In this document: positions 768 through 27,150 of the stretch, one piece after another
Layout: the number at the start of each line of letters is the position of its first letter
How positions within the stretch are numbered: position 1 is the stretch's first letter
Source of the DNA: a virus
Strand: one strand, 5' to 3'
UHGV virus genome: UHGV-0189314
Length of the DNA stretch: 27,150 nucleotides
Position numbers and translations under genes: made by a program
Notes under the pieces: model-generated
What the model saw: only the letters and a program-made list of their open reading frames with translations
Told to the model about the DNA's origin: nothing
Database searches by the model: none

Positions 768-776
768 AGTTTTTAC

Positions 777-802: not shown

Positions 803-817
803 ACAGGAGAAAAAAGT

Positions 818-1478: not shown

Positions 1479-1479
1479 T

Positions 1480-2250: not shown

Positions 2251-2364
2251 ATGAAAGGCATAGAAGTTGAAACTCCCGCGAGTCTTGATTTGACAAGGGC
2301 TGCGGCCTTTGCAATTCGCCTTGTAGCAGTCGCTATTCTGATTTGGGCTGTGCGTTGGTGGTGA
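2251..2364 (+). CDS. Small hypothetical membrane protein (37 aa, C-terminal TM helix)
   Basis: MKGIEVETPASLDLTRAAAFAIRLVAVAILIWAVRWW read in frame; below the ORF-track cutoff. Stop TGA at 2362-2364 is 1 nt before the next ORF's ATG. Weak RBS. Confidence 0.3.
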   Translation: MKGIEVETPASLDLTRAAAFAIRLVAVAILIWAVRWW

Positions 2365-2365
2365 T

Positions 2366-2548
2366 ATGACACGAAAACACTGGACACACAGAATGCCGCG
2401 AACGGCGGCGAAATGGGCACTGGTAGCGATACTGGTGCCTTTTTTATTGGTGGGATGTGTCAGCCTGGATAAAGCGCGCCAGCTTTTCGATACAGCTTCA
2501 CAGGTCTGCAAAATTGTCGACAGTGTCCAGCAGTGTATGCAGAACTGA
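2366..2548 (+). CDS. Small putative lipoprotein (lipobox LLVG-C); alternative start at 2393
   Basis: Signal peptide: basic n-region, hydrophobic WALVAILVPFLLVG, then Cys. The 30-aa mature part CVSLDKARQLFDTASQVCKIVDSVQQCMQN has 3 Cys and no prolines, so it is not a typical Rz1-type o-spanin. Confidence 0.4.
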   Translation: MTRKHWTHRMPRTAAKWALVAILVPFLLVGCVSLDKARQLFDTASQVCKIVDSVQQCMQN

Positions 2549-2878
2549 TAGACTGTGAGAGCAGAATATTTTGCTGAAAAATAAAAGACGCGTCGGCATC
2601 CGGAAAGCGTAGAGTTCTGCTACGTGTGCCAATTTTATCTTATTCATTCTAAATCTTGCCAAATCAAATGGAGCTTTGCTCAACTGCCCGGGTGGGAAGG
2701 GGCATTAAAACACGGGAAAATTATGTGGAAATCTACAGGAGTCAAGTTAATCACCGTATTGATTGACGGCAAACCACAATACTCACTTATTGAAATGAGC
2801 GGTCAGCATGCTTGTTTGGTTCGTGAGTAACAGGCATTACAGCAGTCCTCTCTCACTGAAGGGGGCTGCTGTAATGTG

Positions 2879-3085
2879 TTAGCTGTTTTTTATGAATCCG
2901 TTGACGACCCATCCGACAAATCTGAGAACACCATATATCAGCAAGGCACATGTCAGTGAAGTCAATATATCAAGCAGTGAGAAGCCTTGCGTATCTGTTG
3001 GTGAAAATAAAAGACCAAAGATGAACACCAGTGTAGCCAGCAGAATGCCCAGTCTATGGAACCCGTTCGAAATAGTGTTTTGCAT
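2879..3085 (-). CDS. Small two-TM membrane protein (68 aa) between lysis genes and cos; possible moron
   Basis: Minus-strand ORF with two hydrophobic helices (LGILLATLVFIFGLLF and LTSLTCALLIYGVLRFVGWVV). Occupies the position and orientation of bor in lambda, but has no lipobox. Confidence 0.35.
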   Translation of the reverse strand: MQNTISNGFHRLGILLATLVFIFGLLFSPTDTQGFSLLDILTSLTCALLIYGVLRFVGWVVNGFIKNS

Positions 3086-3255
3086 TTTTGTTTTCCGTAT
3101 CAGGTTGTAATGGTTTAGTTATTTTAGCATCTGGATAATGAGGTTCTAATCGTCTGGATATACCGGAAGCGATGGGGGGCGTTTGTTGAGTCTGATATTT
3201 ATTAAAATGATAACTTTTTCTCATTTTTACGGGTCCTTTCCAGAATCCGAAACAC

Positions 3256-3269
3256 CGGGGGTCGGTGGA
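3256..3269 (+). other. cosN-like cohesive-end site (approximate)
   Basis: GGGGGTCGGTGGA-CGCGCAAAAACG-CGCTATTTATGAGATTTTTT parallels lambda cosN and flank GGGCGGCGACCT-CGCGGGTTTT-CGCTATTTATGAAAATTTT (recalled). The CGCTATTTATGA block is identical, and the site lies ~220 bp upstream of the Nu1 start, as in lambda. Confidence 0.5.
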
Positions 3270-3309
3270 CGCGCAAAAACGCGCTATTTATGAGATTTTT
3301 TGAGGGGGT

Positions 3310-3455
3310 GGTTGTTGTTTAATTGTTTGTTATATCTCATTGATAAGTAAGAATAAACAGAAATAAATACAACAACCTGATGATGCTTTTTGATGTGATC
3401 GATGTATGAAATATAAATAAAATCAAATGGTTTCGTAAAAATACAAGGTTGTTGT
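3310..3455 (+). promoter_or_regulatory. cosB-like region with three copies of GGTTGTTGT (R-like terminase small-subunit binding repeats)
   Basis: GGTTGTTGT at 3310-3318 (+), its complement ACAACAACC at 3369-3377, and GGTTGTTGT at 3447-3455 (+); AT-rich spacers. Mirrors the lambda R3/R2/R1 layout between cosN and Nu1. Confidence 0.45.
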
Positions 3456-3487
3456 ATCGTTTTTTATCGATGGCTTATGGAGAGGAG

Positions 3488-3994
3488 ATGGCCTGTTTAT
3501 TGAATAAAAGCGATATGGCCTCCTCCATCGGTATATCCGTTCAGGCATTTGATAAATGGGGCGTTCCTCCTGTTGAGCGTCGGGGAAGGGAAGTTTTTTA
3601 TGATGTTAAAACCGTGCTGGAAATCGATCGCGAGCGACGACAGCACAATCAGAGAGCACCTGATGACGGGAGTGATCTGGAGGAAAGATTACTCCGGGCC
3701 AGAACTGAACTGACGGAAGAACAGGCCGTAGCTCAAAAACTTAAAAATCAGGTAACCGAAGGTAAGCTCATCGATTCAGAGTTCTGTGTTTTCGCCCTCA
3801 GCAAACTGGCGATGGCATTGTCCAGTACGCTTGATTCCATTCCTTTATCCATGCAGCGACAGTTCCCGGATTTAACCCCGCGTCATATTGATTATCTGAA
3901 AACCCTTATCGCAAAAGGAGCGAATCAGTGTGCGCGGGCAGGGGATAAATTGCCGGAGTTACTCGATGAATATATCCAGACAACAACTGAATAA
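3488..3994 (+). CDS. nu1: Terminase small subunit (lambda Nu1-like)
   Basis: RBS GGAGAGGAG then ATG at 3488. C-terminal FCVFALSKLAMALSSTLDSIPLSMQRQFPDLTPRHIDYLK...LPELLDEYIQ aligns with lambda Nu1 ...FCTFVLSRIAGEIASILDGLPLSVQRRFPELENRHVDFLK...IPGLLSEYIE (recalled). 3' end overlaps the A start, as in lambda. Confidence 0.85.
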   Translation: MACLLNKSDMASSIGISVQAFDKWGVPPVERRGREVFYDVKTVLEIDRERRQHNQRAPDDGSDLEERLLRARTELTEEQAVAQKLKNQVTEGKLIDSEFCVFALSKLAMALSSTLDSIPLSMQRQFPDLTPRHIDYLKTLIAKGANQCARAGDKLPELLDEYIQTTTE

Positions 3995-5882
3995 TATGAT
4001 GCTCGCCGTCACAACCGCATTACAGCCACTGATAAGGGCACTGCCGGTGACGCCGGTTGAGTGGGCTGATCAAAATTATTATCTGCCCAAAGAGTCGTCA
4101 TACGGTGAGGGGGAATGGAAAACCCTGCCGTTCCAGGTCGCCATCATGAACAGCATGGGTAATGACCGGATCCGTACTGTTAATCTGATTAAATCAGCGC
4201 GCGTGGGTTATACCAAAATGCTGTTGGGCGTGATCGGGTATTTTATTGAGCATAAATCCCGTAGCAGTCTGCTTTTTCAGCCGACAGATTCTGCAGCTGA
4301 AGATTTTATGAAAGCGCATGTGGAAGCTACATTGCGGGATGTTCCCTGCCTTAAAGCGTTGTCTCCATGGCTGGGCAAAAAACATCGTGACAACACGCTC
4401 ACTCTGAAGCGTTTTTCCTCCGGTGTGGGGTTCTGGTGCCTGGGCGGTGCCGCAGCTAAAAACTACCGTGAAAAATCTGTGGATGTGGTCTGCTATGACG
4501 AACTCTCCTCGTTTGAACCGGATGTGGAAAAAGAAGGCTCGCCGACGCTGCTTGGCGATAAACGTATCGAAGGCTCGGTATGGCCTAAATCCATACGCGG
4601 CTCAACGCCAAAAATTAAAGGCTCCTGCCAGATTGAGAAAGCCGCGAATGAATCTGCGCATTTCATGCGGTTTTATGTCCCTTGCCCTCATTGCGGGAAG
4701 GCCCAGTATCTGAAGTTTGGCGATGATGCGACGCCGTTTGGCCTGAAATGGGATAAGGGTAAACCGGAAACGGTGTATTACCTGTGTGAACATAATGGCT
4801 GTGTGATCCGGCAGTCGGAACTTGACCAGAGCGACGGACGCTGGATTTGTGACAATACCGGGATGTGGACGCGTGATGGCCTTACATTTTACAGCGCCGG
4901 TGATGAGGAGATACCGCCACCGCGCTCAGTCACGTACCACGTGTGGACAGCGTACAGTCCGTTCACCACCTGGGTGCAGATTATCTACGACTGGCTGGAT
5001 GCGCTGAAGGACCCGAACGGCGTCAAGACGTTTATTAATACCACGCTCGGGGAGCCCTATGAAGAGGCTGTGGCAGAAAAACTGAGCTTTGAGTTGTTGC
5101 TGGAAAAAGTCTGCCACTATGGTGCGCAGGTTCCCCTGCGGGTGGTTTACCTTACCGCCGGGATCGACTCCCAGAAAGATCGCTATGAAATTTATGTCTG
5201 GGGCTGGGCTCCCGGCGAAGAAGCCTTTCTGATTGATAAGCAAATTATCATGGGGCGACCGGAAGACGAGGACACCCTGAAACGTGTTGATACGGTGATC
5301 CGGAAAAAATACCGCCATGCTGACGGTACTGAAATTTCCATTTCCCGCGTCTGCTGGGATACCGGTGGTATCGACCAGGACATTGTGTATCAGCGTTCCA
5401 GAAAACACGGCACTTTTTTTGTGCTTCCCATAAAAGGGGCATCGGTGTACGGCAAGCCGGTGATCACCATGCCCAAAAAGCGCAACCAGCGTGGCGTGTT
5501 TCTGTGTGAGGTGGGTTCCGACACCGTCAAGGAAATGCTGTATGCCCGTTTTGCCCTGCCGGTGGTTCCTGCCAGTGAAGCCGCTCCGTATACCTTCCGT
5601 TTTCCGGATAACCCGGACATTTTTTCGGAAGAAGAAGCACGTCAAATCGTGGCGGAAGAACTGGTGGAAAAGGTGGTTAATGGCAGGGTGAAACTGCTGT
5701 GGGATAAAAAAGGGCGACGCAACGAAGCCCTCGACTGCCTGGTATATGCCTATGCTGCCCTGCGTATTTCAGTACAACGATGGCAACTGGACCTTGAGGC
5801 ACTGGCCAGGGCACGAAGAGACGAGCAGGATGAGGATGATATGAGTCTGGAAGAAATTGCGGCTGCACTGAGTGGAGGATAA
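3966..5882 (+). CDS. A: Terminase large subunit (lambda gpA-like)
   Basis: Near-colinear match to lambda gpA throughout (MNISRQQ..., EWADQNYYLPKES, WCLGGAAAKNYREKSVDVVCYDEL, YVPCPHCG, VYGKP, RRNEALDC). Start at ATG 3966, not the ORF-track 3930. Confidence 0.95.
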   Translation: MNISRQQLNNMMLAVTTALQPLIRALPVTPVEWADQNYYLPKESSYGEGEWKTLPFQVAIMNSMGNDRIRTVNLIKSARVGYTKMLLGVIGYFIEHKSRSSLLFQPTDSAAEDFMKAHVEATLRDVPCLKALSPWLGKKHRDNTLTLKRFSSGVGFWCLGGAAAKNYREKSVDVVCYDELSSFEPDVEKEGSPTLLGDKRIEGSVWPKSIRGSTPKIKGSCQIEKAANESAHFMRFYVPCPHCGKAQYLKFGDDATPFGLKWDKGKPETVYYLCEHNGCVIRQSELDQSDGRWICDNTGMWTRDGLTFYSAGDEEIPPPRSVTYHVWTAYSPFTTWVQIIYDWLDALKDPNGVKTFINTTLGEPYEEAVAEKLSFELLLEKVCHYGAQVPLRVVYLTAGIDSQKDRYEIYVWGWAPGEEAFLIDKQIIMGRPEDEDTLKRVDTVIRKKYRHADGTEISISRVCWDTGGIDQDIVYQRSRKHGTFFVLPIKGASVYGKPVITMPKKRNQRGVFLCEVGSDTVKEMLYARFALPVVPASEAAPYTFRFPDNPDIFSEEEARQIVAEELVEKVVNGRVKLLWDKKGRRNEALDCLVYAYAALRISVQRWQLDLEALARARRDEQDEDDMSLEEIAAALSGG

Positions 5883-5885
5883 GTG

Positions 5886-6095
5886 ATGATTTATACACAT
5901 GAGATGCTTTGCGAAGCGCGTCGGGCGCTGCATGAACTGATGATCGGGCGTGCTGTGGCTTCTGTCAGTAAGAACGGACGACAGGTACAGTATTCGCGGG
6001 CGACGATTAATGAATTACGGCGATATATTGAGGAAATTGAAAGTGCGCTTGGAATGTCCGGTCGTCGCCGTGGCCCTGCAGGAATACGACTGTGA
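5886..6095 (+). CDS. W: Head-tail joining protein (lambda gpW-like)
   Basis: ARRALHELMIGRAVASVSKNGRQVQYSRATINELRRYIEEIESALG...RRRGPAG matches lambda W ([28 protein letters not shown]...RRRGPAG). Alternative GTG start at 5883. Confidence 0.85.
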   Translation: MIYTHEMLCEARRALHELMIGRAVASVSKNGRQVQYSRATINELRRYIEEIESALGMSGRRRGPAGIRL

Positions 6096-7663
6096 GCGGG
6101 GGACTGGTGGATCTTCACGGACAACCTTTGCGGCAGAGTATGGGATATTCCGGCGGCGGCTCCGGATTCGGAGGGCAACTGGCTGAATGGTTGCCAGCAC
6201 CGGAAAGTGCCGATGTGGCGCTCTTACCTTCCATTCAGTTGGGTAACGCCCGTGCGGACGATCTGGTCCGTAACAACGGTATTGCCGCAAATGCTGTGGA
6301 AATTCATAAAGACCATATCGTCGGTCACATGTTTCGCCTGAGCTACCGACCCAACTGGCGCTGGCTGGGGATGTCAGAAGCTGATTCGCATGCCTTTATT
6401 GAAGATGTGGAGGCGGCGTGGGTGGAATATTGCGATCCGGTATTTGGTTCGATGGATGTGGAAGGGCGTCGCTCGTTTACCGAATTTATTCGTGAAGGGG
6501 TGGGCGTTCATACGTTTAACGGTGAAATTTTTGTCCAGCCCGTATGGGATACGGAATCCACGTCATTATTCAGAACAAAATTCAAGACCATCAGTCCGAA
6601 GCGCGTCAGCACGCCCGGTTATGGCATCGGCGATCGTTTTATGCGTGCCGGGGTGGAAATCAACCGGTACGGAAAAGCACTGGCCTACCATGTTCAGGAA
6701 GATGACTGGCCCGGTTACGGTGTCAGCAACTGGACACGGATTGCGGCGACGCTGCCCTCCGGGCGACCGGGAATGATCCATGTGTTTCAGCCGCAGGAAG
6801 ACGGACAGACGCGCGGGGCCAACCAGTTTTATTCCGTGATGGAGCGCCTCAAGATGCTCGACACACTGCAGGCCACGCAACTGCAGTCGGCGGTGGTGCG
6901 GGCGATGTATGCCGCGACGATTGAATCCACACTGGATTCGGAAAAAGCATTTGAATATATCGCCGGGGTGGGAGATGGCGGTAAAAATCCCCTGAACACC
7001 ATCATGAAAGGCTATGCGCGCTATTACGCCACCAATACGGTAAAGATGGGTGGGGTTCGTATTCCGCATCTTTATCCGGGGGATTCACTGAATCTGCAGA
7101 CAGCACAGAATGCGGATAATGGTTTCTCTGAACTGGAAAAGGCGCTGTTACGTTACATTGCTGCCGGACTGGGCGTGTCCTATGAGCAGCTTTCCCGCGA
7201 TTATTCACAGGTCAGTTATTCCAGTGCCAGAGCATCCGCCAATGAGTCGTGGCGGTATTTTATGGGGAAACGAAAATTTGTGGCCAGCCGACTGGCGTCA
7301 CAGATGTTTGCCTGCTGGCTGGAGGAAGCCCTTATTCGCGGTGTGATCCGCCCGCCGAAATCCCGTTTTTCATTCTGGGAGGCCCGTTCCGGATGGTGTC
7401 GTGCCGAGTGGATTGGTGCCGGTCGCATGGCAATTGATGGTCTTAAGGAAGTGCAGGAAGCGGTGATGCGTATTGAAGGTGGTTTAAGCACGTACGAGAA
7501 AGAGCTGGCCCTGATGGGCGATGACTATCAGGAGATTTTCCGCCAGCAACTGCGTGAAAGCCAGGAGCGACAGGCTGCGGGTCTTCCCCGCCCCATCTGG
7601 ATAAAGGACACGTTTCAGCAGCAGATCCGACAGACAACGGGAGAAAAAGGCGATGCGTCGTAA
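6092..7663 (+). CDS. B: Portal protein (lambda gpB-like)
   Basis: GTG start overlapping the W stop (GTGA). Long colinear identity to lambda gpB (GGGSGFGGQL, GNARADDLVRNNG, FRTKFKTISPKR, HVFQPQEDGQTRGANQFYSVMERLKMLDTLQ, SYEQLSRDYSQVSYSSARASANESW). Confidence 0.95.
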   Translation: MSGGLVDLHGQPLRQSMGYSGGGSGFGGQLAEWLPAPESADVALLPSIQLGNARADDLVRNNGIAANAVEIHKDHIVGHMFRLSYRPNWRWLGMSEADSHAFIEDVEAAWVEYCDPVFGSMDVEGRRSFTEFIREGVGVHTFNGEIFVQPVWDTESTSLFRTKFKTISPKRVSTPGYGIGDRFMRAGVEINRYGKALAYHVQEDDWPGYGVSNWTRIAATLPSGRPGMIHVFQPQEDGQTRGANQFYSVMERLKMLDTLQATQLQSAVVRAMYAATIESTLDSEKAFEYIAGVGDGGKNPLNTIMKGYARYYATNTVKMGGVRIPHLYPGDSLNLQTAQNADNGFSELEKALLRYIAAGLGVSYEQLSRDYSQVSYSSARASANESWRYFMGKRKFVASRLASQMFACWLEEALIRGVIRPPKSRFSFWEARSGWCRAEWIGAGRMAIDGLKEVQEAVMRIEGGLSTYEKELALMGDDYQEIFRQQLRESQERQAAGLPRPIWIKDTFQQQIRQTTGEKGDAS

Positions 7664-9269
7664 TTTATCGCATATTGCCGCCATGGCATTTAATGAGCCG
7701 CTTTTACTGGAGCCCGCCTATGCGCGGGTTTTCTTTTGCGCGCTGGGTAAAGAGATGGGGGCCGGAAGCCTTACCGTTCCTCAGCAGGCTGTTCAGCTTG
7801 ATGCTGATGGTATGCAACTGGCTGTGACTGACTATATGGCGGGCGGTCAGCGTCCGGCAAAGAGTTACCAGGTGAAGAATGGCATTGCCATTCTGCCGGT
7901 GAGCGGCACGCTGGTGCATAAACTGGGTACCCTGCGGCCTTACTCCGGCATGACAGGCTATGACGGTCTGACGGCCCGCCTTCAGATGGCGGTGAATGAT
8001 CCGGATGTGCGCGGCATTTTGCTGGATATCGACAGCCCGGGCGGTCAGGCTGCCGGGGCGTTTGACTGTGCTGACATGATTTACCGCCTGCGGGAACAGA
8101 AGCCCGTGTGGGCGCTGTGTAATGACATGGCCTGTTCAGCCGCCATGTTGCTGGCGGCAGCCTGTACGCGTCGGCTGGTCACGCAGACGGCAAAAATTGG
8201 TTCGATTGGTGTGATGATGGCGCACACCAGTTACGAGAAACAACTGGCACAGGAAGGGGTGGACATCACGCTGATTTACTCCGGGCAGCACAAGGTTGAC
8301 GGCAACAGTATTCAGGCATTGCCGGCAGGTGTGCGTGCAGATTTTCAGCGCCGTATTGATGAGGCCCGCCGGATGTTTGTCGACAAGGTGGCACGTTATA
8401 CGGGGCTGAGCGCTGAGGCGGTGATGAATACCGAAGCAGCCGTTTATGACGGTCAGGCAGGCATTGATGCAGGCCTGGCTGATCAACTGATTAATGCTGC
8501 AGATGCCGTTGAAGTGATGGTTTCTGCACTGAATGAATCTGTAACACAGGAGGAAACGATGACAGTTAAAAATCTCACCGTTGCTGAAGCGGTGGTCCAG
8601 GAAAATCAGCGCGTGATGGGGATCCTGAATTGTCAGGAGGCGAAAGGGCGCGAGCAACTGGCGCAAATGCTGGCAGGTCAGCCTGGAATGACGGTTGAGC
8701 AGGCGAAAACGTTGCTGGCTGCTGTGCCGGTTGCCGGTACTGACAGCACGGGTGATCAGATTATGGCGCTGCCGGAAGCAAAGGGGCGTGAGCAACTGGC
8801 ACAGATGCTGGCAGGTCAACCGGGGATGACGGTGGCGCAGGCGAAAGCGTTTCTGGCGGCAGCCCCTGCTGCCGGTGCTGCAGGCACAGGCGAACAGATT
8901 ATGGCGTTACCAGAAGCAAAAGGGCGTGAACAACTCGCGCAGGCGCTGGCTGAACAGCCGGGAATGACCGTTGACCAGGCCAAAACGTTACTGGCGGCGG
9001 CACCGGTTGCGGGTTCTGCAAGTGTCGGCGAACAGATTATGGCGCTGCCGGAGGCGAAAGGGCGCGAACAACTTGCACAGGCACTGACAGAACAGCCAGG
9101 AATGACGGTGGCGCAGGCGAAAACGCTGCTGGCAGCCGCGCCGGCGGCATCGCAACCGTCACAGGAAACACTTTTTGATCGCTTTATGGCACAGCATGCT
9201 GCCAGTGCGGTTTCCGGTGGCGGAACTGCCGGGCGCGGGGAGGAAGACCTGCTGATGAGTATGCCGTAA
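7653..9269 (+). CDS. C: Head maturation protease / scaffold (lambda gpC-like, S49 family) with repeat-expanded C-terminal domain
   Basis: N-terminal ~300 aa match lambda C / ClpP-like S49 protease; the C-terminal ~230 aa consist of four 46-aa tandem repeats. Start overlaps the portal stop. Confidence 0.9.
   Translation: MRRNLSHIAAMAFNEPLLLEPAYARVFFCALGKEMGAGSLTVPQQAVQLDADGMQLAVTDYMAGGQRPAKSYQVKNGIAILPVSGTLVHKLGTLRPYSGMTGYDGLTARLQMAVNDPDVRGILLDIDSPGGQAAGAFDCADMIYRLREQKPVWALCNDMACSAAMLLAAACTRRLVTQTAKIGSIGVMMAHTSYEKQLAQEGVDITLIYSGQHKVDGNSIQALPAGVRADFQRRIDEARRMFVDKVARYTGLSAEAVMNTEAAVYDGQAGIDAGLADQLINAADAVEVMVSALNESVTQEETMTVKNLTVAEAVVQENQRVMGILNCQEAKGREQLAQMLAGQPGMTVEQAKTLLAAVPVAGTDSTGDQIMALPEAKGREQLAQMLAGQPGMTVAQAKAFLAAAPAAGAAGTGEQIMALPEAKGREQLAQALAEQPGMTVDQAKTLLAAAPVAGSASVGEQIMALPEAKGREQLAQALTEQPGMTVAQAKTLLAAAPAASQPSQETLFDRFMAQHAASAVSGGGTAGRGEEDLLMSMP
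8559..9269 (+). CDS. nu3: Putative nested in-frame scaffolding protein (lambda Nu3 analogue)
   Basis: Internal in-frame ATG at 8559 preceded by strong RBS CAGGAGGAAACG. In lambda, Nu3 is translated from an internal start in the 3' part of C. Inference by analogy. Confidence 0.45.
   Translation: MTVKNLTVAEAVVQENQRVMGILNCQEAKGREQLAQMLAGQPGMTVEQAKTLLAAVPVAGTDSTGDQIMALPEAKGREQLAQMLAGQPGMTVAQAKAFLAAAPAAGAAGTGEQIMALPEAKGREQLAQALAEQPGMTVDQAKTLLAAAPVAGSASVGEQIMALPEAKGREQLAQALTEQPGMTVAQAKTLLAAAPAASQPSQETLFDRFMAQHAASAVSGGGTAGRGEEDLLMSMP
8628..9180 (+). repeat. Four tandem copies of a 138-bp (46-codon) coding repeat inside the C/Nu3 scaffold domain
   Basis: The EAKGRE-encoding codons recur at 8637, 8775, 8913 and 9051 (period exactly 138 bp). 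Peptide units: (Q)EAKGREQLAQ[M/A]LA[G/E]QPGMTV[E/A/D]QAK[T/A][L/F]LAA[V/A]P[V/A]AG...[D/E]QIMALP; copies are diverged, not identical. Confidence 0.85.
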
Positions 9270-13824: not shown

Positions 13825-14713
13825 TCTGTCCGCGATACCGGTACCGGATGCGGTGGAAGTGCCGGACACCGCTGTGCTGGTTACTCAGATAGTGGCGAAG
13901 TATCAGGAGCTGGATACGTTGTTTTCGGCCCTGGTGGAATCCGATCCGGCGTATAAATGGGCAGAGGCACTGGCTTTTCGCGTGGCGCTGATGCGCCAGC
14001 AGGTCAATGATGCTGTCCGGGGTGTACTGCTTGCCAGCGCCCGGAGGAACGACCTGGATCAGATTGGTGCGAATTTTCAGGTGCAACGTCTGGTGATTAC
14101 CCCGGCAGACGACAGCACCATCCCGCCCACGCCTGCGGTGTATGAAGATGATGATGCTTTTCGCGAACGTATCCAGTTGTCATGGGCACGACTCAGCACC
14201 GCAGGCGCGAAAAACGCATATCACTATTTTGCACAGAGTGCCGATCCTGATGTGCTGGATGTGAAAGCCTATGGGCCGGAAACGCATTCACAGGAAGGGC
14301 GTGTTTTTCTTTATGTGTTATCGCGAACCGGAAACGGTACGGCATCACAACCCCTGCTGGATAAGGTGGCCGCGTCAGTTAATGATGATGAAATCCGACC
14401 CCTGACGGATTTTGTCAGCGTCCGTGCGGCAGACATTATTCCCTACGATGTGGTGGCAGATATTCATATTCCCTACGGGCTGGACGGTGAACTGGTGATG
14501 AAAAATGCCCGCCAGGCGCTGCAGACCTACACTGACAGTGTTCACCGGATTGGCTCTGTGGCGTCCTGCTCTGGCATGGACGGAGCCCTGCATCAGACCG
14601 GTGTGATTACGGTGGCACTGAAATCGCCGGCCAGCGATATTGTTCCGGCGATGGGGCAGGCTCCATGGTGTCGCTCAGTCACACTGAACAAGGTGGAGAC
14701 AACCGATGAATGA
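13799..14713 (+). CDS. J: Baseplate assembly protein J (P2 gpJ-like)
   Basis: IIDLSAIP, NDLDQIGANF, RLVITPADDSTIPPTPAVYEDDDAFRERIQ match P2 J (IIDLNQLP, NDLDVIGANY, RLTITPADDSTIPPTPAVMESD). Probable TTG start at 13799 after RBS GAGGAG; no in-frame ATG nearby. Confidence 0.9.
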   Translation: MATSQAIIDLSAIPVPDAVEVPDTAVLVTQIVAKYQELDTLFSALVESDPAYKWAEALAFRVALMRQQVNDAVRGVLLASARRNDLDQIGANFQVQRLVITPADDSTIPPTPAVYEDDDAFRERIQLSWARLSTAGAKNAYHYFAQSADPDVLDVKAYGPETHSQEGRVFLYVLSRTGNGTASQPLLDKVAASVNDDEIRPLTDFVSVRAADIIPYDVVADIHIPYGLDGELVMKNARQALQTYTDSVHRIGSVASCSGMDGALHQTGVITVALKSPASDIVPAMGQAPWCRSVTLNKVETTDE

Positions 14714-15296
14714 CGATATCAGGAGCATACTGCCGGTCAGTGCCAGCCGGGCAGAGCGGGTGGTGGACTGTGTCGCCGGAGATATGCTGTCAGATATAGC
14801 GGTCTGCCTGATCCGCTATGTGAAAAATCCCGATTTATGTCCTGCTGAATTGCTGCCATGGCTGGCCTGGGAAATGGCGGTGGACACCTGGAATGAACAC
14901 TGGACGGAGACGGAAAAAAAGTCTGCGATAAAACGTGCTGCTTACATCCACCGCCACAGAGGGACTAAAGCGGCGCTGATGGCATCGCTGGCTGACAGTC
15001 CCTTCCGGTCGCAGATTGTTGAGTGGTATGAGCAGACCCCACCCGGGGAGCCGTATACCTTTCGTTTGAACGTGGAGCAGAAGGATTTACCGGTGCTGAT
15101 GAATGATCATCAGGATCTGAAGCATGCGGTACTCCGTGCCAAAAATCTGCGTAGCTGGTTCAGTATTCACGTTTACGGGAACAGCACAGGGCGGGGATTT
15201 GGTTACGGTTATGTGATGGCGACAGAAAAAATCAGAAGTAACGGTGTGATAACAAAGACAGTGCCCACTGGCGGGCAGAGTGAGGCAGGAGTATGA
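14706..15296 (+). CDS. I: Baseplate / tail protein I (P2 gpI-like)
   Basis: NPDLCPAELLPWLAWEMAVDTWNEHW matches P2 I (NPDTCPANLLPWLAWAFSVDRWDEKW); start overlaps the J stop. Confidence 0.85.
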   Translation: MNDDIRSILPVSASRAERVVDCVAGDMLSDIAVCLIRYVKNPDLCPAELLPWLAWEMAVDTWNEHWTETEKKSAIKRAAYIHRHRGTKAALMASLADSPFRSQIVEWYEQTPPGEPYTFRLNVEQKDLPVLMNDHQDLKHAVLRAKNLRSWFSIHVYGNSTGRGFGYGYVMATEKIRSNGVITKTVPTGGQSEAGV

Positions 15297-16552
15297 ATGG
15301 ACTGATTCTGACAACGTCCGGCACTGCAGAAATTGAAGCAGCATATCAGAACGGGCAAACCGTGACCGTCCGGCATGTTCTGCTTGGTGACGGGGGCGGG
15401 CAGGCATTGCCATCCACGCCGGATGAAATGGCAGCAATGACATCATTGTACGGCGAATTTGGGCAGGAACCCTTTTCCGACGGTGCGGTGGAGGAGGGCT
15501 TCATCAGCGGGGATATTGTGATTGACTGTAAATCATACCCCGGTAAAACCCTTCGTGAACTGGGTATAATTAGCGACAGCGGTACGCTTATCGCGTACGG
15601 ACGTTATCCGGACACCTTTTTACCAGACCAGACGGACTCTGTTATCAAGGAAGTTATTCTGACGCTGGTTCTTGGGCTGACGCACGCACAAAACGTGGTG
15701 CTGGAAGTTGATCCGGACAGGGCCATTATTACTCAGGAAATCGGAGACAGACGCTATCTGCAACGAAAAAAGAATCTTTCGGATGTGGAAGACAAGGATG
15801 AGGCTGTTAAAAACCTCGGATTAAAATCCACGGTGGACAAGGCAAAAAATGCCGTTCAGCGTGATGGTGACACCATGACCGGGGATCTGAAAATCCGTGG
15901 TGTTAATGCGCTGAGGATTTTCAACGAAGCCTTTGGTCTGATTTTTCGTCGTTCGGAAGAGTGCCTGCACCTTATCCCTACCAGTGAAGGTCAGGGCGAG
16001 AATGGCGATATTGGTCCACTTCGCCCGTTCACTATTAATCTGCGGACGGGTGAAATATCCATGTCGCATAAAGTGTCTATTGGCGGTGGTTCGCAGGTCA
16101 ATGGTGCGCTGGGTATCGGCGTTCAGAATGCCTTGGGCGGTAACTCAATTGCTTTCGGGGATAACGATACTGGCCTGAAACAGAATGGTGATGGCCTGCT
16201 GGATGTTTATGCCAATAGCGTGCATGTGTTGCGTTTTCAGAGTGGCAGTATCCAGAGTAATAAAGCTGTAAACGTTACAGGACGGGTAACACCGTCAGAC
16301 TACGGAAACTTTGATGCCCGTTACCAGACCAAAACAGGCGGCGTGCAGGATGTGCGTTATGGTTCCGAAATGTATTACACCCCGGGAGGTAACCAGATAT
16401 CCTGGACATTTCGCTCACCTTCAGGCCACGGGTTATCCGGTATTAATGTGCAGGAAACCGGAAGTAATTCGGCGGATAACATCGGCGGTGTGTATTACCG
16501 ACCGCTTCAGAAACTGATTAACGGTACCTGGTATAACGTGGCGAGTGTTTAA
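15293..16552 (+). CDS. H: Tail fibre protein (P2 gpH-like)
   Basis: C-terminal ALGGNSIAFGDNDTGLKQNGDGLLDVYANS ... GNFDARY ... YRPLQKLINGTWYNVASV matches P2 H (ALGGSSIVLGDNDTGFKQNGDGILDVYANS ... FDSRY ... FRPIQKYINGTWYNVAQV). Confidence 0.9.
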   Translation: MNGLILTTSGTAEIEAAYQNGQTVTVRHVLLGDGGGQALPSTPDEMAAMTSLYGEFGQEPFSDGAVEEGFISGDIVIDCKSYPGKTLRELGIISDSGTLIAYGRYPDTFLPDQTDSVIKEVILTLVLGLTHAQNVVLEVDPDRAIITQEIGDRRYLQRKKNLSDVEDKDEAVKNLGLKSTVDKAKNAVQRDGDTMTGDLKIRGVNALRIFNEAFGLIFRRSEECLHLIPTSEGQGENGDIGPLRPFTINLRTGEISMSHKVSIGGGSQVNGALGIGVQNALGGNSIAFGDNDTGLKQNGDGLLDVYANSVHVLRFQSGSIQSNKAVNVTGRVTPSDYGNFDARYQTKTGGVQDVRYGSEMYYTPGGNQISWTFRSPSGHGLSGINVQETGSNSADNIGGVYYRPLQKLINGTWYNVASV

Positions 16553-16554
16553 CA

Positions 16555-17097
16555 ATGTTGCATTTAAAAAATATTACTGCGGGTAACCCGAAAACCGCAG
16601 AACAATATCAGCTGACAAAACAGTATGATGTCACCTGGCTTTTTTCGGAAGACGGCAAAAACTGGTATGAAGAACAGGAGAATTTTGCCAGTGACACCAT
16701 AAAAATGGTTTATACCGGAGACGGAAGCGTGGTGTGGGTCGGTAAGGATGTGACAGGCATTGAACCCCGTAACGCCAGTGTTATTGAAGTTCCTGATATT
16801 ATCGCCAATCGCCGCATTACCGCACCGGGTTACTGGTTTTACCGCAATGATGAATTTGTTTTCGACTACAAACTTAAAGCGGAAGACGAGCGTGATGCCC
16901 TGTTAAAACAGGTCAGCATCATCACCAGTGAGTGGGAAAAAGACCTGCTGCTGGGATTAATCAGCGACGAAGACAGGGAGAAGCTGAAAGCGTACCGCAT
17001 TTATGCGAAATCGCTGCAGGCGATGGGTTTCAGCGCTATTGCGGATAAGACTGCTTACGACAAAATTGCCTGGCCTGAGTCACCACAAAATATCTGA
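16555..17097 (+). CDS. G: Tail fibre assembly chaperone (P2 gpG / Tfa-like)
   Basis: 180-aa ORF immediately after the fibre gene, in the canonical tfa position and size; call rests on position and general resemblance. Confidence 0.75.
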   Translation: MLHLKNITAGNPKTAEQYQLTKQYDVTWLFSEDGKNWYEEQENFASDTIKMVYTGDGSVVWVGKDVTGIEPRNASVIEVPDIIANRRITAPGYWFYRNDEFVFDYKLKAEDERDALLKQVSIITSEWEKDLLLGLISDEDREKLKAYRIYAKSLQAMGFSAIADKTAYDKIAWPESPQNI

Positions 17098-21765: not shown

Positions 21766-21958
21766 CGGCGATATGCTGGATGATATCTGTCAGAGACACT
21801 ATGGCAGCGCCGGACTTAACCAGTCACTGGCGGCGGTACTGGAAGCCAATCCCGGACTGGCTGATATTGGTCCGGTATATCCGGCAGGTGTGGAAATCGT
21901 GTTGCCGGACTGGGTGTATGAACCGGAGGAAAAGGAGACGTTTCAGTTATGGGACTGA
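21740..21958 (+). CDS. X: Tail protein X (P2 gpX-like, LysM-like)
   Basis: DGDMLDDICQRHYG....LAAVLEANPGLADIGPVYPAGVEIVLPD matches P2 X (QGDTLDAICVRYYG...VLAANPGLAELGAVLPHGTAVELPD). Confidence 0.85.
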   Translation: MVKNWRTTDGDMLDDICQRHYGSAGLNQSLAAVLEANPGLADIGPVYPAGVEIVLPDWVYEPEEKETFQLWD

Positions 21959-23037
21959 ATGAATATCTGCCTGATTTCAGCCTGACAGCAGAGGGGGAGG
22001 ATATCACGAAGGCCATAAAGCGGGGGCTGGCTGAAGTGCGTTATACCGATAATGGTGCTGCCACAAAGCGCTCCGATGAACTGATGATAACCCTGTTCAG
22101 TGAGAAGATGGCGCTGCCACCAAAAGGCGCGGTGTTAACGCTGGGACTGGGATTCAACGGAAACCTGGTAAATAAAGGCAGCTTTACCGTCTGCCAGGTG
22201 GCAAGTGGTGGGCCTCCCCGTTGGATCACCATTTATGCCACAGCCGCCCCCATGAATGCGTCCAGGCATGGTGCAGATGTGACTGCACTGAAAACCCGCG
22301 TGTTCAGCGATATTACGCTGGGTGAACTGGTGAAAACGATCGCCACTGAAAATAATCTGGTGGCGCAGGTCTCACCGGCGCTGGCGGAAATCCGTATTCC
22401 GTGGGTGATGCAGTCATCTGAATCGGATGCGTCCCTGCTTTCCCGGCTTGCAGGGATGTACGGTGCCACCAGTAAACCGACGAACGGTTACTGGTTATTC
22501 CTGGAGTATGGCGCATCGCAGAGTACATGCGGCAGGGATGCCCCTGTAATGACCATCACGCCGGACATGGTGTCAGACTGGGATTACCGGGAGGGGGAGC
22601 GGCAGGGCGCATCCGGAGGTGGAAAAGGAACAACAAAAAAAGGGAAAGTGGGTGTCAGATATTTTGACCCTCGCGACGGGAGAACGCGCGAATTTAAAGT
22701 GGATGTGGAGTCCACAGACAAGCGACATCCATTCACTCAGCCGGATCAGGGCACAGCAAAACACTGCGCAGACTCTAAGGTTAAACGTGTGCAGAAAGCC
22801 GGACGCCAGATGACGATAACGTTGCCCTGCAGGCCCGCATTGTTGAAAGCGGGTGCAGAGATGCGTTTTATCACGCAGGGTTTTGGGGGACGCGAGGATC
22901 ATAACTGGCAGGCTGAGTCGGTGGAGTTTTCACTGGCACCGGGGCAGGGATTTACGCTGAATCTGTCGCTGACCACGGATATTTCTGCAAAGGGGAAAGC
23001 CAGTGGCAAGAAAAAAGGCGTCAATTATTTTGGTTAA
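21949..23037 (+). CDS. D: Tail protein D (P2 gpD-like, baseplate hub / late tail gene)
   Basis: Size and several blocks match P2 D (LPDFSLTAEGEDITKAI, PPKGAVLTLGLGF..LVNKGSFTV, TLGELV); terminal gene of the U-X-D trio. Confidence 0.85.
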   Translation: MGLNEYLPDFSLTAEGEDITKAIKRGLAEVRYTDNGAATKRSDELMITLFSEKMALPPKGAVLTLGLGFNGNLVNKGSFTVCQVASGGPPRWITIYATAAPMNASRHGADVTALKTRVFSDITLGELVKTIATENNLVAQVSPALAEIRIPWVMQSSESDASLLSRLAGMYGATSKPTNGYWLFLEYGASQSTCGRDAPVMTITPDMVSDWDYREGERQGASGGGKGTTKKGKVGVRYFDPRDGRTREFKVDVESTDKRHPFTQPDQGTAKHCADSKVKRVQKAGRQMTITLPCRPALLKAGAEMRFITQGFGGREDHNWQAESVEFSLAPGQGFTLNLSLTTDISAKGKASGKKKGVNYFG

Positions 23038-23061: not shown

Positions 23062-24279
23062 ATGTCTGTATTAATTTCGGGTGTGCTGACGGATGGTGCG
23101 GGACTCCCCATGTCCGGATACCATATTATTCTGAAAGCCCGACAGAATACATCCGCAGTGGTTATGAGAACGGTGGCAACAGTGGTGACAGGGCCGGCAG
23201 GAGAATATGCATTTGAGGCTCAAACCGGAATATATGATGTTTATCTTCGTTCGTGTATTGAAAGAGAATATTGTGTCGGTGATATTTGGGTTTACGACGA
23301 TTCTAGGCCCGGTACACTGAATGATTTTCTGACCGCTCTCGATGAGGGCGACTTGAAACCGGATGTGGTGAAACGCTTCGAAGAAATGTTGGCGCAGGCG
23401 CAGCAGAGCGCGGAAGCGGCAGCGGAAAGCGAACGACAGTCCGGGCAACACGCAGCTGATGCGCAGAAGATTAAGGATGATTGCCAGATGCTGGCGGATA
23501 ACGTACAGCAGAATGCAGAAGCCGTTGCCGAAGATAAACAACGCGTTGAACATCTGGCCTCAGAAGTTGAGTTGAACGCTGGGCAGGTGCAGCAGAGTAT
23601 TACAGATGCAGTAAAGCAGGCTCAACAGGTAGCAGATGACGCTGCATCCAGTGCCGAGGAATCAAAGAACAATGCGCAGGAAGCAAAACAGTACAGGGAT
23701 GAGGCACAACAGATTATTGATAGTCTGAATGCAACAAATGCCACCACAATGGATAAAGGGCTGGTGCAACTGTGTAGTGATACGGACAACGACACCGAGG
23801 AGCTGGCTGCTACGCCAAAGGCAGTCAAAGCCGTCATGGATGAGGTTAAGGGAAAAGCGCCGCTGGACAGCCCTGCGTTCACTGGCATGCCAACCACCCC
23901 CACCCCTTCGCAGGATGCGTCCGGTTGTGAAATTGTAAATGCTGAATTTGTTCGGGCATTGATTGCTGCAACGTCATCAGGTTCGTATTCAACCGATTCA
24001 GTGGTTCCGCTGGTAATTAATGGTGCACAACTCCAGTCCGCTCATCAGAGCAGTGGACCACTGGTGATAAACAAGGTGCAATTTCAGCACGTCCGTCAGA
24101 CCAGAACCAATGCCCCCCTGGTGGTCAACAAAGCACTGATCCAGTCCGCTCATCAGAGCAGTGGACCACTGGTGATTAACAAGGCGCAACTTCAGCACGG
24201 TCGTCAGGCCAGAACCAACGGCCCCCTGGTGGTTAACCGTATGGGGTTGAGTTTTGCATTCGTTACCCCTTTGCAATGA
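23062..24279 (+). CDS. Second tail fibre: lambda-Stf-like N-terminus, coiled-coil region, repeat-containing C-terminus
   Basis: N-terminus MSVLISGVLTDGAGLPMSGYHIILKARQNTSAVV...VYDDSRPGTLNDFL matches the lambda Stf / prophage tail-fibre N-terminal domain (MAVKISGVLKDGTGKPVQNCTIQLKA...VYEDSQPGTLNDFL). Middle GLVQLCSDTDNDTEELAATPKAVKAVMDEVKGKAPLDSPAFTGMPTTPT matches the conserved fibre motif also in P2 H. Confidence 0.8.
   Translation: MSVLISGVLTDGAGLPMSGYHIILKARQNTSAVVMRTVATVVTGPAGEYAFEAQTGIYDVYLRSCIEREYCVGDIWVYDDSRPGTLNDFLTALDEGDLKPDVVKRFEEMLAQAQQSAEAAAESERQSGQHAADAQKIKDDCQMLADNVQQNAEAVAEDKQRVEHLASEVELNAGQVQQSITDAVKQAQQVADDAASSAEESKNNAQEAKQYRDEAQQIIDSLNATNATTMDKGLVQLCSDTDNDTEELAATPKAVKAVMDEVKGKAPLDSPAFTGMPTTPTPSQDASGCEIVNAEFVRALIAATSSGSYSTDSVVPLVINGAQLQSAHQSSGPLVINKVQFQHVRQTRTNAPLVVNKALIQSAHQSSGPLVINKAQLQHGRQARTNGPLVVNRMGLSFAFVTPLQ
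24007..24240 (+). repeat. Near-identical tandem coding repeat (2 x 108 bp plus a partial third) at the C-terminus of the Stf-like fibre
   Basis: Copies at 24007-24114 and 24115-24222 differ at only a few positions; each encodes PLV[I/V]N-x-(A/V)Q-x-Q-SAHQSSG / PLVIN-K-x-Q-x-QH-x-RQ-x-RTN. Also generates the antisense artefact ORF 23998-24276. Confidence 0.75.
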
Positions 24280-24309: not shown

Positions 24310-25473
24310 TTGAATATCATCGATATGGAAGGTTTCTGTCAGATCCCGGCAAACCGTGAGCTTACCAGTTCTTACTCAGCATCAACAATCATGTCGTTGC
24401 TGAAAGAGTACGGTGTCACACTCATCACTGAAACAACCATAGGCACCACACCTTCTTCAGTCCAGCGTAGCACGCAGACCGTTTATGGTATCGACAGGTC
24501 GGGGTTGGTTTTAAGTGCAACAGGAGGACGTATTGCATTTAAAGTTCCGCTTCCTGACATAAGTGAGTCTGCCGTGCAAATGGGATTTCGTCTTACTCTG
24601 GGTGAGGGAACAAAATATTCTTCAGGTCTTTCCGTCATTTCGGTGGGAGGGTGTACGTTTTTGACGCCTTATCCGGCAGAAGCCGCCAGTTATTACTACG
24701 AAATTTTTGTTACTTGGGATGGCGTTAAATGCACAGCGGACTTGTATTGCAGTGGAGCCTTGTCGCAAACAGGCACGTTCTCCCCCGCAAGAACAGACAG
24801 CGTATCAGTCACCATTGGGGTAACCAGTGGTTATATTTTTTCCTCAGGCGTTACAGGTACGCTGATGCTGGGAGATATGTACTGCGCAACGGTGGCATAT
24901 AACGACGAAAACATCGCAGAAGCCTCTCCACTGGGTAGTATTGAGGTGAGATACAGTGAGGTTACTCAGTTTGAGGGAGGTCGTGCAGAAAACTCACTGG
25001 GGGAAGATATTGTTACAGGACTGAACACACCGACTAGTGATGCTGGTTACCTGCTGCTGGGGGCGTCCACGGATGCGGCAGTGGCAACGTTTGCTGATAT
25101 TGATAATAGAGGTGGAGAGTTGATTGGCATTAAAACAGCTGTCACATACAGGAGTTCAGCCACGCCAAACAACTATCTGGCGTGGAATACGGGCTGTGAA
25201 AGTGGCAGCGGGGCAATAACAGAAGAGACGGAACTAAACGCTGACCAGTCCAGCTGGACTACGGTTAAACAATGCTTTATGAATCTGCCCGGTAGTGAAG
25301 ATGCTTTCGGTGAGGGGAATCTGACGTTCACGGCCTCCCTGTATAACAGAAAAATATCTGAGGACAATCCTGTATCCCGACACTATCGCGTGATGAGAGA
25401 GGTGCTGAATGTCTCCGGTGTTGAGGAGAAGGATATAGAGGTTGAGGACAATAGTGCAGGTCGATCGCAATGA
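24310..25473 (+). CDS. Hypothetical protein (387 aa), Ser/Thr/Gly-rich, beta-rich; no family recognised
   Basis: Probable TTG start at 24310 (RBS GAGGG 8 nt upstream) or ATG at 24325; 30 nt after the Stf-like gene. No signal peptide or recognisable motif. Candidate distal fibre / receptor-binding component or accessory cargo. Confidence 0.5.
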   Translation: MNIIDMEGFCQIPANRELTSSYSASTIMSLLKEYGVTLITETTIGTTPSSVQRSTQTVYGIDRSGLVLSATGGRIAFKVPLPDISESAVQMGFRLTLGEGTKYSSGLSVISVGGCTFLTPYPAEAASYYYEIFVTWDGVKCTADLYCSGALSQTGTFSPARTDSVSVTIGVTSGYIFSSGVTGTLMLGDMYCATVAYNDENIAEASPLGSIEVRYSEVTQFEGGRAENSLGEDIVTGLNTPTSDAGYLLLGASTDAAVATFADIDNRGGELIGIKTAVTYRSSATPNNYLAWNTGCESGSGAITEETELNADQSSWTTVKQCFMNLPGSEDAFGEGNLTFTASLYNRKISEDNPVSRHYRVMREVLNVSGVEEKDIEVEDNSAGRSQ

Positions 25474-25886
25474 GGATATTTATCGTCGCCAGCGGGACAG
25501 CGGGGGATGAAGCAAGAGCTTAATGACCTGGAGGATTTACGCTCAATCAGAGAGATGACGATTAGTAATTAGCAGTCAATTCTGGGCTTTTGGGTTGCAC
25601 GCTTTTCGCCCAGAATTGTGCGTCAATTATCCCAGAAAAAATTAATAAGTTACAATCAGGCAAAAAATTTCCTCTGCAAAACCAAAAAGATTTTAATATA
25701 ATCAATCGGTTAAAGGCGAAGGCGGCGCAGGCAAATGGTGCAAACAATCATCTAAAAATCTTGTTTTTTGCTTTAAATACAGTTTGTTATTATGTTTTTT
25801 GAGACTCTACCAGAGTGACAACATACGCCCGCTACGGTTTTGCGGGCGTAAGATAATTAAGAATTTTATATGTATTATAATTAACT

Positions 25887-26666
25887 TTATATAAGAGTGT
25901 TTTGCAGCCAGTTTTTTATCGTTATATTGACTTCCTTTGCGTGAGTAATATTTAGAGCATGATTAGCGTCGGGAATGACTTCAAGCTTAGAATGTGCAAT
26001 CATTTTGTGCATTTGAATTGCTTTCTCCAAAGATATCCCCGTATCTCTGGCACCATGAATAATCAGGGTGGGGGTTGTGATTATCTGGATTCTTTCTGAA
26101 ATGTCGTCGCGCTCCAGCATTGCATTCATGGCATTTCTGATGTTTTCAGGCTTATGGCCTAGCCATACTTGTCTCCATGTCTCTGCTTCAGAAATATTAT
26201 TTCCGAAAAAAACGGGTAATAATGAGGAAATTATATTTTCCTTTATGATTGGGTCTTGCCATCCATCACATAACTCCATGTAACTGGAAGCGATTTCTGG
26301 CGGATCCTGCTCTGCCTGAGTTGCCATAAGGATTAACCCTGATAAACGTTCCGAATGTGAAAGAGCAAATCGTAAAGATATATATCCGCCCATTGACATC
26401 CCCCCTAAAACAAACTTATCTAGTTGTAGTAAGTCTGCAACCATTAAAATATCATCGACGATATCATAGAGCGAGAATGCTTCTGTTTTTTCACTGTTTT
26501 TATCAAACCCCCGAACATTAATACAAACAACTCTGTGTTTTTCTTTTAGTTCGTCAAGCTGATATTTAAACATTTCATTATTCATGAAAAATCCATGAAC
26601 GAATATTACAGGGGGATTGTTTTTATTTGTTTCAGTGTATCCAGAATCAGTAAACGTAAAATTCAT
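25887..26666 (-). CDS. Alpha/beta-hydrolase-fold protein (esterase/lipase-type serine hydrolase), low-GC cargo gene
   Basis: HGFF oxyanion-hole motif, nucleophile elbow GGMSMGG (G-x-S-x-G), acidic residue in HGARDTG, and His in DANHALN in the canonical order Ser-Asp-His. RBS GGAGGG upstream of the minus-strand ATG. Strongly AT-rich codon usage unlike the phage structural genes. Confidence 0.8.
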   Translation of the reverse strand: MNFTFTDSGYTETNKNNPPVIFVHGFFMNNEMFKYQLDELKEKHRVVCINVRGFDKNSEKTEAFSLYDIVDDILMVADLLQLDKFVLGGMSMGGYISLRFALSHSERLSGLILMATQAEQDPPEIASSYMELCDGWQDPIIKENIISSLLPVFFGNNISEAETWRQVWLGHKPENIRNAMNAMLERDDISERIQIITTPTLIIHGARDTGISLEKAIQMHKMIAHSKLEVIPDANHALNITHAKEVNITIKNWLQNTLI

Positions 26667-27150
26667 GAGCCCTCCATTATTTAGACGGTTATGTTGTATA
26701 TTTCACTAATGATAGGGAAGAGTTTATTGTTCTGCCGCACAGAAATCTACCTGTCAAAACCCTTCTGACGTTTATCTACCAAGATGGAGATAATATTGTC
26801 AAGTATTCGTTAGGATACAAAAGTATCGGATTAATAGTAAAATCTAAGAAGTATTCGTGCGGCTGTACGCCTCATTGACTTTTCCTTTCTCGCAAGACAT
26901 AGCTAATTCTCGGCACGTTGATGAGCTATTTTCATATATTGTGCAGTAAGCGTTTCTCTCGGAGGTGCCGGCAAGAACAATACATCCTAGGTTTTTCTGA
27001 TTAGTGCCGCTTATGCATCGATGATAAGGGATATTTGTTCTGTGAGCTTGGCGGGAATGGTATCGCCAGCATCATTGGCTTTGGTCCAGTAAAAAGAGAC
27101 GCAGAAAGATGCACAACAGGCACTACGCGTCATGCATGGATTTAGGGCGC

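Follow-up and report, generated by a model that had tools for sequence, protein, structure and literature searches.

We analysed a stretch of 27,150 nucleotides from the virus genome UHGV-0189314 (hereafter the window), with attention to its terminal segment (positions 25474-27150), in which a minus-strand gene for an alpha/beta-hydrolase lies beyond the tail and fibre region. Our preferred reading, to which we give a probability of about 0.7, is that the segment belongs to the mosaic right arm of an Escherichia coli prophage and carries an accessory cassette of about 1.24 kb and low GC content, encoding an intact, selectively maintained cytoplasmic hydrolase with a Ser-Asp-His catalytic triad.

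The window covers the late half of a prophage located between yjjG and prfC in E. coli strain Sx181-0-1, to which it is 99.9-100% identical. For window positions 1-6000, 99.9% identity is reached in this strain alone, and three complete E. coli chromosomes contain the segment 25474-27150 at 100% identity. The prophage, which is integrated at prfC, combines lambdoid regulation and a lambda-like head with a P2-like contractile tail. Its integrase gene (int) lies on the yjjG side and a dinI-like gene with attR on the prfC side, so that the hydrolase gene is inside the prophage, near its right end. The order int, tail, hydrolase, dinI-like gene ends at prfC; the order in strain 2015C is tfa-hydrolase-dinI-int-dusA.

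Composition and boundaries of the cassette

The first-pass annotation had described a sharp change in base composition near the start of the segment, and the GC profile confirms it. GC content is 0.389 over 25474-27150 versus 0.523 over 1-25473, and the lowest value among equal-length control stretches elsewhere in the window is 0.432 (0/2380 below this value); the segment thus lies beyond all 2380 controls and does not share the composition of its flanks. A two-segment likelihood fit places the change point in GC at approximately 25535, and 100-nt bins fall from 0.46-0.51 to 0.31 at 25601. Over the last 109 bases (27042-27150) GC content is back up to 0.52, indicating that the low-GC island extends from about 25570 to 27041 rather than over the full interval to 27150. 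The hydrolase gene has a GC content of 0.373, with 0.346 at third codon positions (GC3), as compared with a GC3 of 0.46-0.61 for ten late genes; for the cassette as a whole (GC 0.378, versus 0.523 for 1-25473), this is the distinct composition expected of a moron, or phage cargo gene.

Segment boundaries were taken from an alignment of six alleles with their flanks, together with BLAST boundaries. At the left edge, homology to the alleles of avian pathogenic E. coli (APEC) O1 and of 377323_2f begins at window positions 25807-25810; at the right edge, a widely shared arm begins at 27042. The cassette between these edges (25807-27041) comprises a 3' hairpin, the hydrolase gene and a 375-nt upstream non-coding region. 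The conserved arm (27042-27150, GC 0.52) leads to the dinI-like gene and attR just beyond the window; it matches, at 94-95% identity, sequence close to the ends of 41 phage records, most of them from Shiga toxin (Stx) phages, and is carried by 484 E. coli genomes. Left of the cassette, blastn homology delimits an AT-rich non-coding stretch (25540-25806) with approximately 77% similarity to the terminal arm of lambdoid prophages integrated at ompW, an arm bounded there by a DUF4376 remnant and attR; at least 80% of this stretch is covered in 571 genomes (blastn), with the annotation DUF4376/OmpW. The stretch appears to be left over from the right end of a different prophage and meets the hydrolase cassette at about 25807. 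Judged from these alignments, the segment is a mosaic prophage right arm with the accessory cassette as its core.

Distribution, mobility and selection

Of 5426 complete E. coli genomes, 30 carry the hydrolase gene, without exception on the chromosome, and every context inspected is a prophage or a prophage remnant. The flanking arm is present in 484 of these genomes and in the 41 phage records, a pattern of presence and absence between conserved flanks that is characteristic of morons. The cassette occupies five chromosomal sites, with three tail types at four of them and a remnant disrupted by an insertion sequence (IS) at the fifth. At prfC it accompanies either the P2-like tail (the window and E. 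coli 16F5M1D1) or a lambda-type gpJ/lom/stf tail, at the zinT side a lambdoid tail (APEC O1), and at dusA a Mu-like baseplate (2015C, in the order given above). At ompW, where tail genes are present, the gene is intact in ST2350 and split into two open reading frames (ORFs) in E24377A, and near potB it lies in an IS66-disrupted remnant (GF60). The Stx1a phage Stx1_14040 has the order gpJ, lom, fibre, hypothetical gene, nleC, the same arm, dinI and attR; on this comparison of gene orders, the cassette is in a variable cargo slot that is filled in Stx1_14040 by nleC, a type III secretion system (T3SS) effector gene.

These contexts show that the cassette has been moved by recombination among prophages differing in their tails and integration sites. 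Exchange also reaches into the unit itself. The dusA allele is 74% identical to the window in the C-terminal third of the gene, 92% in the N-terminal third and 93-98% upstream, a gradient indicating recombination inside the cassette. The upstream region is as conserved as the coding sequence or more so.

The phage encoding the type II heat-labile enterotoxin LT2d in the diarrhoea-outbreak strain E. coli O8:H8 16F5M1D1 (PMC6988837) is a sibling of the window prophage; it has the same backbone, and over the right arm, hydrolase cassette included, the two are 100% identical. In this sibling (NZ_AP019856.1 4740115-4742547) the genes for LT-II A, LT-II B and an M15 endolysin lie between holin and terminase. 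We ruled out that the window is the LT2d phage itself: positions 1-615 do not translate as LT-II A, and the window encodes a GH108 endolysin, has no toxin genes and is a sibling of the Sx181-0-1 type. Cargo genes at prophage ends are a main route by which E. coli gains toxins, effectors and metabolic traits. The cassette illustrates this route clearly, one unit of 1.2 kb having been shuffled among prophages that differ in tail and integration site, an enterotoxin phage included.

Morons and the cargo of the lambda b region have reportedly been described by Hendrix and colleagues, and exchangeable effector loci of lambdoid prophages in enterohaemorrhagic E. coli are said to have been described by Tobe and colleagues in 2006. 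The cassette resembles both in lying between tail-fibre genes and the attachment-site end, in its low GC content, in its variable presence and in its use of the nleC slot. It differs in that the cargo is a metabolic-type hydrolase rather than a known effector, toxin or surface-modifying enzyme, and in that the promoter and terminator of its own that a moron would have are represented here by candidate elements only, with no calls from consensus scans. The first-pass proposal that the gene is a moron nevertheless stands, given its position inside the prophage, the five sites, its presence in 30 genomes versus 484 for the arm, the slot shared with nleC, the base composition and the intact triad.

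Alternatively, the gene could be hitchhiking neutrally or decaying, as debris that recombination has left at a prophage end and that serves neither phage nor host. The surroundings do contain such debris (a truncated stf gene, a tfa remnant, a capsid fragment and the foreign terminal arm), and the gene is rare, split in E24377A and flanked by IS elements in GF60. However, pairwise dN/dS among the six alleles is 0.14-0.23 at dS values of up to 0.77, indicating that the protein is kept under purifying selection, and the catalytic triad is invariant. Five of the six alleles have intact ORFs, and the gene has a strong ribosome-binding site (Shine-Dalgarno GGAGG at 26671-26675 on the minus strand, read from the sequence, 4 nt upstream of the ATG) as well as the conserved upstream region. 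We therefore consider the neutral explanation unlikely. The hydrolase alleles have diverged far more deeply than E. coli core genes.

The hydrolase and its predicted activity

The segment contains a single ORF longer than 70 amino acids, at 25887-26666 on the minus strand; its 259-residue product is identified as an alpha/beta-hydrolase by the reading frame, Pfam, alignment and structural model, in agreement with the one solid gene, a serine hydrolase, described at first reading. The protein matches Pfam Abhydrolase_1 (PF00561) at 1e-28 (101.1 bits versus a cut-off of 25.8) over positions 1-244 of the 245-position profile, and only alpha/beta-hydrolase families appear among its Pfam matches. 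Its nucleophile elbow is G89-M-S91-M-G93, and the triad Ser91-Asp208-His236 is in canonical order, aligns with the matching residues of the solved esterase 4uhc and is invariant across a 29-sequence alignment reaching down to 25% identity; the triad reported from the sequence is thus intact, and its serine, on whose conservation the earlier claim depended, does not vary. The profile score, the elbow and triad, and a core with a helical cap all place the protein in the alpha/beta-hydrolase superfamily.

An AlphaFold (AF2) model built on the 29-sequence alignment (predicted local distance difference test [pLDDT] 94.6, predicted template modelling score [pTM] 0.93) has the canonical beta-sheet/helix core, four cap helices at residues 123-184 and lacks an N-terminal extension. 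There is no signal peptide: the N-terminus, MNFTFTDSGYTETNKNNPPVIFVHGF, has neither a charged n-region nor a hydrophobic h-region, and in the model it already forms the first beta-strands of the fold, which begins at beta1 (residues 5-7) and continues at 20-23. This upholds the earlier statement that the protein carries no signal peptide. The E. coli members are N-terminally shorter than non-mobile homologues. The earlier description of the gene as divergently oriented was incorrect: its 3' end faces those of the plus-strand tail and fibre genes, a convergent arrangement, and it lies on the same strand as the dinI-like gene beyond the window.

Sequence and fold searches, which covered the BioH, enol-lactonase and esterase families that had been suggested as candidates, returned TtEst of Thermogutta terrifontis as the nearest characterised protein. 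It is both the best sequence match (phmmer against 4uhc, 3.9e-31 over residues 16-256) and the top fold match (4uhe, template modelling score [TM] 0.90, root mean square deviation [rmsd] 2.0, 31% identity). TtEst is a capped, cytoplasmic carboxylesterase that prefers C1-C3 esters (PMC4655241). The hydrolase shares with it (4uhc/4uhd/4uhe/4uhh) the Ser-Asp-His positions, a GxSMGGY elbow, a helical cap and the lack of a signal peptide. The two differ in that identity is only 31% and in that TtEst comes from a planctomycete chromosome whereas the hydrolase is on a mobile element. The clade of the hydrolase has invariant cap residues of its own (W136, W164, W168, M180, M183 and R186), and its substrate preference need not, therefore, equal that of TtEst. 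Further fold matches include the PcaD enol-lactonase, a Pseudomonas aeruginosa hydrolase, a feruloyl esterase, a Pseudomonas fluorescens aryl esterase, the KAI2/D14 receptors and Est816, which degrades acyl-homoserine lactones (AHLs), with TM of 0.8-0.9 to many solved members.

PcaD (TIGR02427; PDB 2xua) and BioH (TIGR01738) are the best-scoring named NCBIfam families and have close folds, but the hydrolase belongs to neither: it scores 93.4 bits against TIGR02427 (equivalog cut-off 255.85), 82 against TIGR01738 (206.95) and 42.9 against PRK10349 (449), and, unlike those systems, it has no pca or bio neighbours. Scores against macrolide esterases (EstT/EstX, NF052610 and others) are likewise below their cut-offs (59.3 versus 420 and 52.3 versus 450 bits). 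From its similarity in fold and sequence to a C1-C3 carboxylesterase, enol-lactonases and aryl esterases, we predict a cytoplasmic enzyme of the carboxylesterase/lactonase type that would act on a small soluble ester or lactone.

Lacking an export signal, the protein is unlikely to act directly on surface receptors. The first-pass suggestion of lysogenic conversion or of receptor or lipid modification accordingly finds no support, since the nearest characterised relative, TtEst, is cytoplasmic (PMC4655241) and homologues of the hydrolase also occur outside phages. The same evidence bears on the idea that the enzyme has a role in the phage life cycle, as an esterase associated with the virion or with infection (such as a de-O-acetylase of receptors that resembles a tailspike or an esterase of the NanS-p type). 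The gene adjoins fibre genes, phage esterases exist and the protein matches PHROG 789 ('esterase/lipase') at 5e-28; in its prophage carriage in E. coli near late and tail genes it also resembles the NanS-p esterases. NanS-p esterases of Stx prophages are of the SASA/SGNH type and carry DUF1737; no SASA/SGNH or DUF1737 family is among the hydrolase's Pfam matches, and the fold is different. Moreover, the gene is on the strand opposite to the late operon, its product is predicted to be cytoplasmic and lacks domains of the fibre, tailspike or SGNH/SASA kind, the gene is missing from most relatives of the same phage arm, and homologues lie in non-phage loci. A life-cycle role is, in our judgement, very improbable.

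A function in anti-phage defence or superinfection exclusion is suggested by the location, in that prophage ends often hold defence genes and a sibling prophage has Dsr1 beside int. However, the protein has no PADLOC-DB v2 family match at E ≤ 0.01, it is a lone small esterase with no partner gene, and its relatives lie in fimbrial and T3SS loci; we regard a defence function as most unlikely.

Relatives are few. A representative library of 1.84 billion proteins contains about five clusters (at 50% identity) with at least 38% identity to the hydrolase and 35 at E < 1e-30, and across 185,579 species genomes identity reaches 40% at most, in Photobacterium kishitanii, all other matches being at or below 33%. 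The closer relatives are mostly in low-GC accessory loci (gene GC 0.30-0.46 in the four measured). One E. coli relative (P0012, 52%) lies with a periplasmic-binding-protein gene and an aldehyde dehydrogenase gene next to an IS element, and another (P0013, 50%) directly follows a chaperone-usher fimbrial operon. Others are in a pilin/DsbA/EAL/K88/SPATE region of metagenome contigs (P0015, 46%), inside a Ysc-type T3SS cluster (P0018, 41%) and, in Vibrio cholerae, next to genes for a TDH-family haemolysin and for an AcfD-like M60 peptidase (P0052, 38%). For the V. cholerae, fimbrial and T3SS-locus homologues, NCBIfam searches gave the neighbouring genes no names. The hydrolase appears to belong to a narrow clade tied to horizontally acquired, virulence-type loci, an association that consists of a handful of loci and is not a statistical test.

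These loci favour an explanation in which the hydrolase is a virulence or colonisation factor, either secreted (as a T3SS effector or similar) or acting on host esters such as O-acetylated mucin sugars or lipids. The checked relatives (38-50% identity) are in virulence-type loci, the gene takes the place of nleC in an Stx1a phage (a location expected of T3SS effectors), and an outbreak strain has the identical cassette in its LT2d enterotoxin phage (PMC6988837). Set against this are the absence of a signal peptide and of the N-terminal secretion or chaperone-binding region that an effector would have (the fold starts at about residue 5), the cytoplasmic location of the closest characterised relative, and the small number of loci behind the association. 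We also count against it that the hosts APEC O1 and enterotoxigenic E. coli (ETEC) E24377A presumably have no locus of enterocyte effacement (LEE). On balance, a virulence factor in this sense is improbable.

A broader proposal is that the narrow clade, enteric and marine gamma-proteobacterial, is a recurrent passenger of virulence loci with a shared host-adaptation chemistry; we hold this to be doubtful, if somewhat less so than secretion or direct action on host esters. If it were true, the chemistry might be, for example, the deacylation, in the course of gut colonisation, of an ester or lactone that derives from the host or the microbiota, or the quenching of an AHL signal. If instead the activity is generic, the result amounts to the routine annotation of a prophage moron that encodes an alpha/beta-fold hydrolase. 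The recurrence of the clade in virulence loci is the one feature beyond routine annotation, and a function assigned to the hydrolase would extend to a clade recurring in virulence islands of E. coli and Vibrio; otherwise this is a fairly ordinary phage accessory gene. We found no description of the hydrolase gene in the literature, and the LT2d phage paper (PMC6988837) does not mention it.

Regulation and neighbouring features

Returning to the reading of the cassette as maintained cargo, expression would serve the lysogen rather than the virion, and could proceed from the gene's own promoter or by read-through from the SOS-controlled dinI-like gene. A candidate sigma-70 promoter on the minus strand consists of TTGACA (26802-26797), an 18-nt spacer and a TG-extended, -10-like TAGATA (26778-26773). 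The bases TTGTCAAGTATT (26796-26807) and TGGTAnAnA (minus strand) are invariant in six of six aligned alleles, and the promoter-like bases are kept even in GF60, where the upstream region is otherwise 59% identical. The consensus scan missed this candidate because the final base of the -10 element is A, not T. The dinI-like gene is about 0.6 kb upstream of the hydrolase gene on the same strand. Two LexA boxes (CTGT-N8-ACAG, at 14082-14097 and 14110-14125 of locus L001; 0.18 expected by chance in the locus) lie upstream of it, just past the right end of the window, and overlap a TTGACA promoter-like site. A terminator scan made no call between the dinI-like gene and the hydrolase gene, and SOS-driven read-through is therefore possible.

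Several results weigh against the reading of the segment as an expressed and maintained cargo cassette. Consensus scans gave no canonical promoter or intrinsic terminator, and promoter-like sites are no commoner than in shuffled sequence. A possible stem-loop after dinI (7-bp stem, 21-nt loop and T-rich tail, found by eye) could block read-through. All NCBIfam equivalog scores are far below their cut-offs, so that no substrate can be assigned. The split allele of E24377A implies that the gene is dispensable. Finally, no close homologue is present in 50,697 phage records (the best is 26% identical), and carriage on an infectious virion is therefore no more than putative.

The GC-rich hairpin at 25824-25850 (9-bp stem, 9-nt loop), between the fibre remnants and the 3' end of the hydrolase gene, folds at -21.8 kcal/mol on the minus strand (z -3.7) and -23.1 kcal/mol on the plus strand (z -2.9). 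It has no U-tract on either strand, and the terminator scan made no call for it. The APEC O1 and 377323 alleles keep the hairpin, with changes limited to single mismatches or wobbles; compensatory change was considered and rejected, the variants being a mismatch and a G-U wobble. An Rfam scan of cassette and arm at a permissive E-value returned two sub-threshold chance matches and no known RNA element. At the other end of the cassette, the 40-residue ORF at 27001-27123 on the minus strand, named 'ferredoxin' in RefSeq, is probably an annotation artefact rather than a gene, because it spans the cassette/arm junction (27041/27042) and has no family support (NCBIfam and PHROG searches gave no match).

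The first-pass annotation had placed the hydrolase gene just beyond fibre genes. The position beyond the fibre region holds; the immediate neighbours, however, are a truncated stf pseudogene, a 387-residue ORF and an assembly-gene remnant, and the P2-like tail has its intact fibre and assembly genes at 15293-17097. The stf-type side-fibre gene, a second fibre gene and of lambdoid type, follows gpD on the plus strand (23062-24279); it is a pseudogene according to RefSeq, truncated and ending near 23985. Its ORF matches the Prophage tail fibre N-terminal domain at 1.3e-53 and contains a tandem repeat at 24032-24237 (108-bp unit, 1.9 copies, 90% identity). An intact equivalent pair is found at the right end of phiP27. 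The 387-residue ORF (24310-25473, plus strand) has a full-length match to PHROG 8291 (unknown function) at 9e-103, and Pfam and NCBIfam searches gave no match; its position suggests a distal fibre or receptor-binding protein. The DUF4376 tail-fibre-assembly remnant (25457-25572, plus strand), annotated by RefSeq on the identical sequence in two genomes, is frameshifted and lacks its N-terminus. The AT-rich stretch next to it contains an imperfect inverted repeat (25566-25587 / 25608-25629) that folds at -23.5 kcal/mol (z -2.5). In UTI89, the region equivalent to this stretch carries as cargo a minus-strand methyltransferase dependent on S-adenosylmethionine.

In full, the prophage begins with the integrase gene, Dsr1, early genes, the Q antiterminator gene, four tRNA genes, holin genes and a GH108 endolysin gene, followed by lambda-like head genes and the P2-like contractile tail, which ends with gpD (21949-23037). 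The truncated stf-type fibre gene, the 387-residue ORF, the DUF4376 remnant, the hydrolase gene (minus strand) and the 40-residue ORF (minus strand) come next, and beyond the latter are a capsid-gene fragment, the dinI-like gene (minus strand) and prfC. The slot beside the integrase gene, which is outside the window (2864-6691 of locus L101 and 5867-8466 of locus L006), differs between siblings, holding the Dsr1 defence sirtuin gene in Sx181-0-1 and genes for an 'ATP-binding protein' and a hypothetical protein, possibly another defence pair, in 16F5M1D1. At the left end of the window, a tRNA-Gly (tcc) gene (7-81) closes the array of four tRNA genes (Ile, Arg, Thr, Gly) that separates the Q antiterminator gene from the lysis genes; the latter encode two holins (818-1210 and 1200-1478) and the GH108 endolysin (1459-2025). 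A second low-GC patch (0.37-0.44), at window positions 2500-3500 between the lysis genes and the small terminase subunit gene, holds short ORFs only and is mostly unannotated in the matching genome.

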